Source: Naegleria gruberi (lineage: Eukaryota). Taken from it: DNA of 2,029 bases. The stretch lies in assembly GCA_000004985.1 (NCBI GenBank), contig GG739295.1. The stretch is one strand, 5' to 3'. The position numbers and the translations under genes were made by a program. The notes under the pieces were generated by a model. It was not told where the DNA came from, ran no database searches, and worked only from the letters and a program-made list of their open reading frames with translations. Shown in pieces: positions 1 to 1,863 of this stretch. Numbering within the stretch: position 1 is the first letter of the stretch; the number at the start of each line of letters is the position of its first letter.

Positions 1-118
1 CCAGTGTTCCTACAAAGTCGTGGTCTCTCATCAATTCAGAAGCAGATACTTTGGATGGTTCCTCCACTATCTCCTTCCACTTCTTACCAGCCTTCTTTAC
101 TTTATCTTGTGATGACAT
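1..118 (-). CDS. Partial 5' coding exon of a protein-coding gene that continues beyond the left edge. The N-terminus reads MSSQDKVKKAGKKWKEIVEEPSKVSASELMRDHDFVGTL... and is basic and lysine-rich. I do not recognise the product.
   Basis: The reverse complement of 1..118 is an open frame of 39 codons from ATG (118..116) with no stop before the window edge. The start context is A-rich (aacaataaaaaaATGtca), consistent with nematode-type initiation contexts. The in-frame sequence upstream to a stop at 200..202 has no further ATG and is not protein-like, so 118 is the first plausible start. Codon usage (AAG, GAG, GGA) contrasts with the flanking AT-rich non-coding DNA. It is missing from the ORF track only because the truncated length falls below the cutoff. 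Confidence 0.45.
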   Translation of the reverse strand, partial: MSSQDKVKKAGKKWKEIVEEPSKVSASELMRDHDFVGTL

Positions 119-436
119 TTTTTTATTGTTATAACTTTGATGGATGACATTTGCAAAAAGATTGCTAAACAAGTAAACAAGTTGATGAATTAGGTTGTAT
201 TATGTTCTGTAGATTTTTAATTCGTTTACTCTGAACTCAAATTTAACTGTAAAAATTCAATCAAACTTTTGTTTTTAAAAAGACTTTGTTGTGGAGACAA
301 TTTTTTTACTTTGGTGCGCTCAAAGTGTTCGTTACATTTATGATTTTTAAATTTATATAAAACCCTAATGATTGGCTGAGGTCTGTGTTTGTAAAAAATC
401 ATGGTGTTGAGTTTTGAGCATCAGTTTTGAACAAAT

Positions 437-468: not shown

Positions 469-521
469 TTTTTTCAATAAATCAGGTATCAAGTTTTCAA
501 AAATTTACTTTATTAAAATTT

Positions 522-552
522 TACAAGTCGAAAAATGCACAGTCGACTTGTA
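522..552. repeat. Perfect 10-bp inverted repeat tacaagtcga / tcgacttgta with an 11-nt loop. The core includes a SalI-type palindrome gtcgac and an adjacent tacgta palindrome.
   Basis: 522-531 tacaagtcga and 543-552 tcgacttgta are exact reverse complements. tacgta lies at 551-556. Confidence 0.6.
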
Positions 553-1104
553 CGTAATGGAAGAATGGTAATAATCTTACCTTCCAACTTCCTCCAAACC
601 AGATTCCGAGCTTAATTAATTGCGAGATGATAAGTTAAGGTGAAATTACAAAGTTACTTACAATTTGTCATTATGACACGAGCTCAAGTTTTGTTTCTAT
701 CTAATTTGAAACACTAAAGACTTGACACAAATCAAGTTGCAAAGTCAAACGCTAACAATTTGGATTGTGTGAATGAATTGAATTAATCAAATAACTTACA
801 ATTACCAAATAATCAAGAATCAATTCAGAAAACTAGAGTTAACTTCCCCATATACAGGTTAGTTGACTTGTGAATTATTGATAACAAAACTTAAGTGAAA
901 CTTACCTTGATTCAGTCAAAAAAGTCATTGTTTTATGATAAGATTTATTTCTTACTGAGAATATATTGATCATCATCCAATATATTAAGTATTTAAAGGA
1001 CAACCAAACATGCCAATGCCAATTTCAAATCCAACCGAATTCCATCAATCATTCGAGATTAGTTTACTCAAATAATAATTTAATTAATGAACAAATAATC
1101 ATCA

Positions 1105-1116: not shown

Positions 1117-1235
1117 CTAATAAAGTAGAACAACCAACCAACATGTTGTACTCAATCACAAACGTGCTGTCAGCAATTCAATCATTTTTTTAAATGTACA
1201 TTTTCCTAAAATAGAATTGGATCATTGTCTTTGAA

Positions 1236-1253
1236 ATTGTACAAGTCGAAAAA
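1236..1253 (+). repeat. Third copy of the gtacaagtcgaaaaa word, a direct repeat of 522-535.
   Basis: attgtacaagtcgaaaaa at 1236-1253 matches ttttacaagtcgaaaaa at 519-535 over 14 consecutive bases (tacaagtcgaaaaa). Its first 11 bases gtacaagtcga equal the reverse complement of 543-553. Confidence 0.55.
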
Positions 1254-1731: not shown

Positions 1732-1843
1732 GATCAAATCAACCAGTGTTTTTTTTGATTTTCTGGGGTTAAAGTGTTTTTTTTTGGCTCCAGATAGGTT
1801 GTTTTTTGTAAATCCGGACCAAATCCCGTCATTAGGGATATTT

Positions 1844-1851
1844 TATATTTA
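1844..1851 (+). promoter_or_regulatory. TATA-like element tatattta, 13 bp upstream of ATG 1864.
   Basis: gggatattttatatttaatttgaaaaaagATG. The spacing to ATG 1864 is too short for a classical -30 TATA, but it would be compatible with the in-frame ATG at 1891, or with a trans-spliced transcript. Confidence 0.2.
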
Positions 1852-1863
1852 ATTTGAAAAAAG

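Follow-up and report, generated by a model that had tools for sequence, protein, structure and literature searches.

The locus analysed here raises the question of why a perfect 10-bp hairpin should be accompanied by a distant third copy of its arm, and whether such an arrangement is a signal, the remains of a mobile element, a product of local duplication, or a coincidence. The window, by which we mean the whole 2029-bp stretch of DNA that was analysed (31.7% G+C), carries TACAAGTCGA on the plus strand at 522–531 and 1240–1249 and its reverse complement, TCGACTTGTA, at 543–552, as described in the initial annotation. The two neighbouring copies, 522–531 and 543–552, form a perfect 10-bp stem closed by an 11-nt loop, AAAATGCACAG, at 532–542, and the centres of the two arms are 21 bp apart. 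Folded as single-stranded DNA, the stem has a free energy of −8.3 kcal/mol (z = −3.0), and none of 200 shuffled sequences was equally stable. The two plus-strand copies belong to a longer direct repeat. The 14 identical nucleotides reported previously, TACAAGTCGAAAAA, are found at 522–535 and 1240–1253, and the similarity reaches further, with 21 of 23 bases identical between 513–535 and 1231–1253.

We refer to the 23-nt units as copy A (TTAAAATTTTACAAGTCGAAAAA, 513–535, plus strand), the core of which at 522–531 is the left hairpin arm, and copy B (TTGAAATTGTACAAGTCGAAAAA, 1231–1253, plus strand). Copy C is the minus-strand sequence at 543–553 (TCGACTTGTAC, the reverse complement of GTACAAGTCGA), and its positions 543–552 make up the right arm. 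The 23 nt of copy B recur directly in copy A, an additional copy that lies 7 nt from copy C. Copies A and B have the 23 nt in common, and copies B and C the 11-mer only. The initial annotation had counted three instances of this 11-mer. The count is correct for the 10-mer; the exact 11-mer GTACAAGTCGA has only two copies, at 1239–1249 (plus) and 543–553 (minus), because position 521 is T. With T at 521 and C at 553, the stem stops at 10 bp. Since copies B and C carry G where copy A has T, position 521 was, by parsimony, probably once G and the stem once 11 bp long, one pair having since been lost; such a loss would argue against selection on the stem. The copies had further been described as sharing a palindromic gtcgac core. 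GTCGAC occurs only once, at 542–547, where it is composed of the last loop base and the right arm, and therefore there is no shared core. Copy B is itself a weak palindrome, centred on TTGTACAA.

Could so short a pattern arise by chance? Dinucleotide-preserving shuffles of the window served as the null model. Taken singly, none of the components stands out in AT-rich DNA: a perfect stem of at least 10 bp (loop of 3–30 nt) appears in 17% of the shuffles and an exact direct repeat of at least 14 nt in 3.2%, and the alignment score of the 23-mer alone was matched in 26 of 400. The specific combination is rare. A stem of at least 10 bp with at least four G or C was seen in 3 of 500 shuffles, and a 10-mer hairpin arm of any sequence together with a third copy in 73 of 6000, a figure that falls to 2 of 6000 when at least four G or C are included. 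The number of extra copies of TACAAGTCGA expected from base composition is 0.004. From the rarity of this pattern in shuffles we conclude that all three copies share a common ancestry: they are true paralogous copies and non-random. The repeat was thus rightly described as lying above chance, but it is less extreme than had been claimed. A mere coincidence in AT-rich DNA, picked out post hoc, could draw on the frequency of long stems and 14-mer repeats among the shuffles, and on the other exact 11–12-mers that recur in the window (two direct families and one inverted pair). The rarity of the joint event, in particular at this G+C content, and the very low expectation for further 10-mer copies nevertheless make it very improbable, as does the fact that the copies adjoin module homology which is significant independently of them (see below).

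The genomic context was clarified by the flanking genes. Positions 2–118 (minus strand) hold exon 1 of a PH/beta-helix gene, encoding MSSQDKVKKAGKKWKEIVEEPSKVSASELMRDHDFVGTL. An exhaustive protein search returned relatives with N-termini 71–84% identical to the exon-1 peptide, and just downstream the contigs of the related loci, L001–L007, carry a gene whose product combines a PH domain with a Pel9A-like beta-helix. Among named relatives, the closest come from Naegleria lovaniensis (C9374_000294, 81% identity to the L001 protein) and Willaertia magna. Judged by its sequence, the window is DNA of a Naegleria-like heterolobosean amoeba and not of a nematode, as had been assumed; since the relatives are Naegleria and Willaertia, nematode repeat families in Dfam or Repbase are the wrong comparison. 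The exon also accounts for the weak relative of the unit, TACAAAGTCGTGG, that had been pointed out at 11–23. The site is coding (CAC GAC TTT GTA GGA, read as H-D-F-V-G in exon 1) and varies codon-wise among the relatives, and hence does not count as a copy of the repeat. The contig of L007, from an environmental metagenome (ENA ERZ929261, run ERR1078381) and of the same species as the window, is 98.9% identical to window positions 1–187 and stops exactly at 187. A stop at the start of the spacer would fit an assembly that broke at repeated or polymorphic sequence.

In L001–L006, the PH gene has as its upstream neighbour, at a distance of 50–550 bp and on the same strand, a gene for an RRM protein of ~1000 aa. 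L001 and L002 are duplicates of each other, as are L005 and L006, which leaves four distinct sequences among the six loci. The RRM neighbour is absent from the window, and tblastn with all neighbouring proteins of the related loci revealed no pseudogene relic. At 119–1863 the RRM adjacency is replaced by a 1.75-kb spacer and the start of a divergent ORF, the two gene starts being at 118 (minus) and 1864 (plus). The plus-strand ORF start, MEANVFAAGMTDNYEYPAVKNPG, spans 1864–1935, with GTAAGT at 1934 and a TATA-like word 12–23 nt upstream, as in the genes of the relatives; the ORF had no match in the PDB. Because Naegleria genomes are gene-dense (77% coding, with 2.5–5% repeats and 1.25% DNA transposons; PMC6125883), a 1.75-kb spacer without a detectable gene stands out.

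The spacer contains no long ORF, the longest in the test being 78 aa, no Pfam domain and no tRNA. Exact look-ups of fifteen ORFs, from the window or reading through its ends, gave no match in the protein collection. Its concatenated six-frame translation found no match among 5.8 billion proteins, which is a weak negative; the word-index protein search missed relatives of exon 1 that were later found exhaustively, and its negatives carry little weight. A codon-usage scan trained on the genes of the relatives did not separate exon from spacer, and a scan for bacterial promoters and terminators gave background levels. The hairpin might still belong to an RNA product, either small or structured (a snoRNA, a terminator or a microRNA-like precursor, for example), and the region 470–600 does have a stable predicted RNA fold on both strands (z = −2.6 on the plus and −2.0 on the minus strand). 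However, the search of Rfam gave no match at E ≤ 1, the stem is unextended at 10 bp where ~20 bp or more is the criterion for a precursor, and the third copy has no partner arm, all of which makes an RNA the least probable of the explanations considered here.

A different picture emerges from comparison of the window with itself. Eight alignments of the window to itself, direct or inverted, score 25 bits or more, whereas 400 shuffles gave 1.07 on average and never more than 5. A module, M, of ~90–130 nt is present in at least three copies and in both orientations. M1 (420–512) is quasi-palindromic and holds the word TTTTTCAATAAATCAGGT and a second hairpin, CAGGTCCT/AGGACCTG, at 437–468 (arms at 437–444 and 461–468), with a perfect 8-bp stem that includes G+C and a 16-nt loop. 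M2 (1254–1385), which can be aligned to M1 either directly or inverted, includes TTTTTCAATAAATTAGGT at 1294–1311 and AGGTCCTC at 1337–1344. The third copy, M3, is found at 1540–1671. Alignments of M1 to 1254–1385 as good as the observed one were obtained in 0 of 1000 shuffles for the direct and 2 of 1000 for the inverted orientation. The direct alignment of M1 to 1540–1671 was equalled in 0 of 300 (z = 6.5 for the similarity of M3), and the direct pair 388–503/1516–1635, one of the two strongest self-alignments (the other is the outer inverted pair described below), scored 34.0 bits, a score reached in 2 of 400. M1 gave no significant alignment to the control segments 560–1221 and 1400–1531, and its alignments to 1254–1385 and 1540–1671 hold with every unit copy removed. 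The central segment between the copies, 554–1230, is without M similarity and without coding signal.

The relation between hairpin and module is seen in the inverted alignment of 423–553 with 1378–1239, which terminates in the perfect 11-mer GTACAAGTCGA. As this alignment places them, copies C and B each terminate a ~130-nt copy of one module, the two module copies being in opposite orientation and copy B adjoining M2. The third copy is not isolated, because both C and B end module copies that align in inverted orientation. The unit had been presented as the clearest repeat of the window, and it is indeed the sole word of at least 9 nt (with at least two G or C) that is present three times; longer, degenerate repeats nonetheless outscore it. 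The layout of a hairpin plus a third copy is also seen a second time, with AGGTCCT(C) at 438, 461–468 and 1337, where AGGTCCTC recurs in direct orientation. A third trio, (TCA)TTCCGATC(CAAT), occurs in direct orientation at 1102–1116 and 1569–1580 and inverted at 1985–1995.

Some further features of the spacer may be recorded here. The inverted copy of TTCCGATC falls within the putative intron 3´ of the GTAAGT at 1934, and the flanks of the direct copies (1090–1131 and 1557–1597) are 75% identical over 44 nt. Three occurrences of ACTTAC, which reads GTAAGT on the minus strand, fall within 250 bp, in the regions 655–664, 793–802 and 900–905, and two exact copies of ACTTACAATT are found among these sites. 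They could be splice-donor-like words of the minus strand or another small repeat; neither an ORF nor homology supports exons at 655–905. A long palindrome at 1271–1380 was dismissed as not significant, its score being reached in 41 of 400 shuffles. The plus strand is A/C-rich at 475–1435 and T/G-rich in the flanks of the spacer. Composition switches at 474 and 1435 when the whole window is considered and at 474 and 1712 within the spacer. None of these points coincides with repeat copies, and an inversion between copies B and C was rejected on account of this mismatch.

Outside the modules lies another inverted pair. Its left arm (344–398, plus strand; read on the minus strand as ...CAGCCAATCATTAGGGTTTTATATAAATTT) aligns with 1860–1802 at 73% identity (35.4 bits, reached in 2 of 400 shuffles), and this alignment is collinear with the inverted alignment 423–553/1378–1239. 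The right arm (1802–1860, minus strand) ends 4 nt before the ATG at 1864. CCAAT-like and TATA-like words (CAGCCAATCATTAGGGTTTTATATAAA; GTCATTAGGGATATTTTATATTTAA) are present in both arms, each of which faces its adjacent gene in the same way, and at the gene starts of the relatives TATA-like words are found 17–45 nt upstream of the ATG. The outer pair may represent duplicated core-promoter sequence rather than the ends of an element. A partial further copy of the arm, TTTCTATCTAATTTGAAA, was noticed at 694–711.

A cis-regulatory role of the unit itself also deserves consideration. The hairpin would then be a putative homodimer site with half-sites 21 bp, or two helical turns, apart, copy B would be a single site, and one or both of the divergent genes would be the target. 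The copies do lie between the two divergent gene starts, several short words recur in the spacer in both orientations, and the 10-mer core is perfect in three of three copies in surroundings where the repeats are 65–84% identical. By our own estimate, however, identity of the core at 10 of 10 positions between two copies has p ~0.2 at ~85% flank identity and is therefore not evidence of selection. The copies are 404 and 611 bp away from the ATGs, whereas the TATA-like words of the relatives are so close to theirs, and L001–L006, loci that are non-syntenic upstream, lack the unit ahead of the orthologous gene. In addition, the stem has lost a base at 521, and the 23-nt tract shared by copies A and B exceeds a typical binding site. 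We consider regulation by this unit quite unlikely.

The repeats may also have arisen locally, without involvement of a mobile element, through small segmental duplications in a neutral spacer that gave rise to copies A and B and an 11-nt template switch that produced the inverted copy C. The shared tracts are as short as micro-duplication or template switching would leave them (11 nt for C and B, 23 nt for A and B), every repeat that was detected is confined to the window, no target-site duplication is visible, and short palindromes are abundant in the region. On the other hand, the 11-mer of copy C runs into ~130 nt of inverted module homology, and at least three copies of M in both orientations together with a collinear outer pair would require many independent events. 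In addition, conserved gene order was lost at this very locus. This origin is possible, if somewhat unlikely.

A mobile element as the source, in the form of a TIR remnant, had been put forward in the initial annotation. The inverted module ends and the collinear outer pair agree with this suggestion, but the analysis revealed no unambiguous target-site duplication, no defined element ends and no other genomic copies in the DNA searched. Candidates for inverted repeats are the perfect 11 bp at 543–553/1239–1249 and the 55–59 nt at 344–398/1802–1860; an equally long perfect 11-bp inverted pair occurs elsewhere in the window, at 1102–1112/1985–1995. We found no direct repeat that could be a target-site duplication outside either the inner pair (preceded by GCACAG and followed by AAAACC) or the outer pair (TTATGA and AAGATG). 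The palindromic TCGA could, however, represent a 4-bp duplication next to repeats of 7 bp. Small size and lack of coding capacity, as in MITEs, are found here, given the 78-aa limit on ORFs and the lack of Pfam domains.

Three other types of element were tried and rejected. PiggyBac-like CCC...GGG ends are flanked by AAAA and ATAT, not by TTAA. For a Helitron 3´ end, the hairpin is followed by CGTAATGGAAGAATGGTAATAATCTTACC on the plus and AAAATTTTAATAAAGTAAATTTTTGAAAACTTG on the minus strand, neither of which has CTRR. Finally, a retroposon insertion with the 23-mer as its target-site duplication would leave an A- or T-rich tail, and there is none beside either copy.

The search for further copies was extended to other collections. 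The 14-mer, the 23-mer and the core word of M are absent from 56 kb of related Naegleria-like DNA, in which the hairpin arm with at most one mismatch had only three matches, all of them coding and none a copy of the unit. A scan of JGI metagenomes for AAATTKTACAAGTCGAAAAA returned 11 loci in seven contexts with 26–45% G+C and without flank similarity; as the contexts are unrelated and the flanks dissimilar, these matches are taken as chance. The hairpin pattern had no match in IMG/VR and four in GTDB genomes, which are unrelated and bacterial, and the plasmid collection gave no match. In the literature we found nothing on MITEs from Naegleria.

Taken together, we favour, tentatively and with somewhat less than even confidence, the explanation that the repeats derive from repeat DNA of a non-autonomous foldback or MITE type, now present as relics, and from local duplication of it, at a break in gene order and without present function. 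The unit would comprise the 11-bp core GTACAAGTCGA within a 23-bp direct repeat at the edge of module M, and the spacer would be a patchwork of decayed repeats, in direct as well as inverted orientation, enclosed by the outer inverted pair. Relics and local duplicates would have gathered where gene order broke. What creates the hairpin is the head-to-head arrangement of two unit copies, 11 nt apart. Both the origin from a mobile element and the absence of function are what we infer to be most likely, and the sequence most likely has no function today, save that it could form a small cruciform.

One more specific possibility is that the unit and M are sub-terminal repeats of an undescribed, lineage-specific foldback/MITE-type family in Naegleria-like amoebae, the insertion or recombination of which broke the RRM/PH adjacency, with the head-to-head 11-mers as the binding or cleavage site of the transposase. 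We regard this as unlikely, and membership of a MITE or foldback family is not claimed, because of the two defining features, multiple genomic copies and a target-site duplication, neither was clearly seen in the DNA analysed.

The main value of the analysis is a correction of context: the DNA is from a heterolobosean amoeba, and the hairpin is the edge of a larger, decayed module and no stand-alone signal. It also flags a 1.75-kb spacer built of repeats at a gene-order break in an otherwise gene-dense type of genome. Should the module prove to be a multi-copy family, it will be a small addition to the sparse catalogue of mobile DNA in Naegleria. The repeat is real yet ordinary and small, nothing indicates a special function, and its importance beyond annotation is little.

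Comparison with known systems places these observations in perspective. The short perfect hairpin in non-coding DNA is reminiscent of the 3´ hairpin of Helitrons, but neither strand carries CTRR within ~35 nt, nor is the stem G+C-rich. Identical inverted half-sites 21 bp apart from centre to centre, with a lone third site in the same intergenic region, resemble the sites of homodimeric transcription factors; here, no conservation was seen in L001–L006, both gene starts are far away, and the shared flanks exceed a typical footprint. Quasi-palindromes generated by template switching have a counterpart in the 11-nt perfect inverted copy, which lies in DNA that appears neutral and is separated by 11 nt from its template, although in the present case the inverted copy runs on into longer module homology and a distant direct copy exists as well. 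Foldback elements and MITEs differ from the locus in that its best-conserved 11-mers are at the inner and not the outer ends of the arms, its arms are only 55–73% identical, and neither a target-site duplication nor a second copy was found in the DNA searched. They are matched by its AT-rich composition, its lack of coding signal, its size of ~0.7–1.5 kb and its intergenic position at a gene-order break, by the nested, collinear inverted pairs 344–398/1860–1802 and 423–553/1378–1239, and by hairpin-forming words and candidate arms of unequal length that appear to consist of short sub-repeats.
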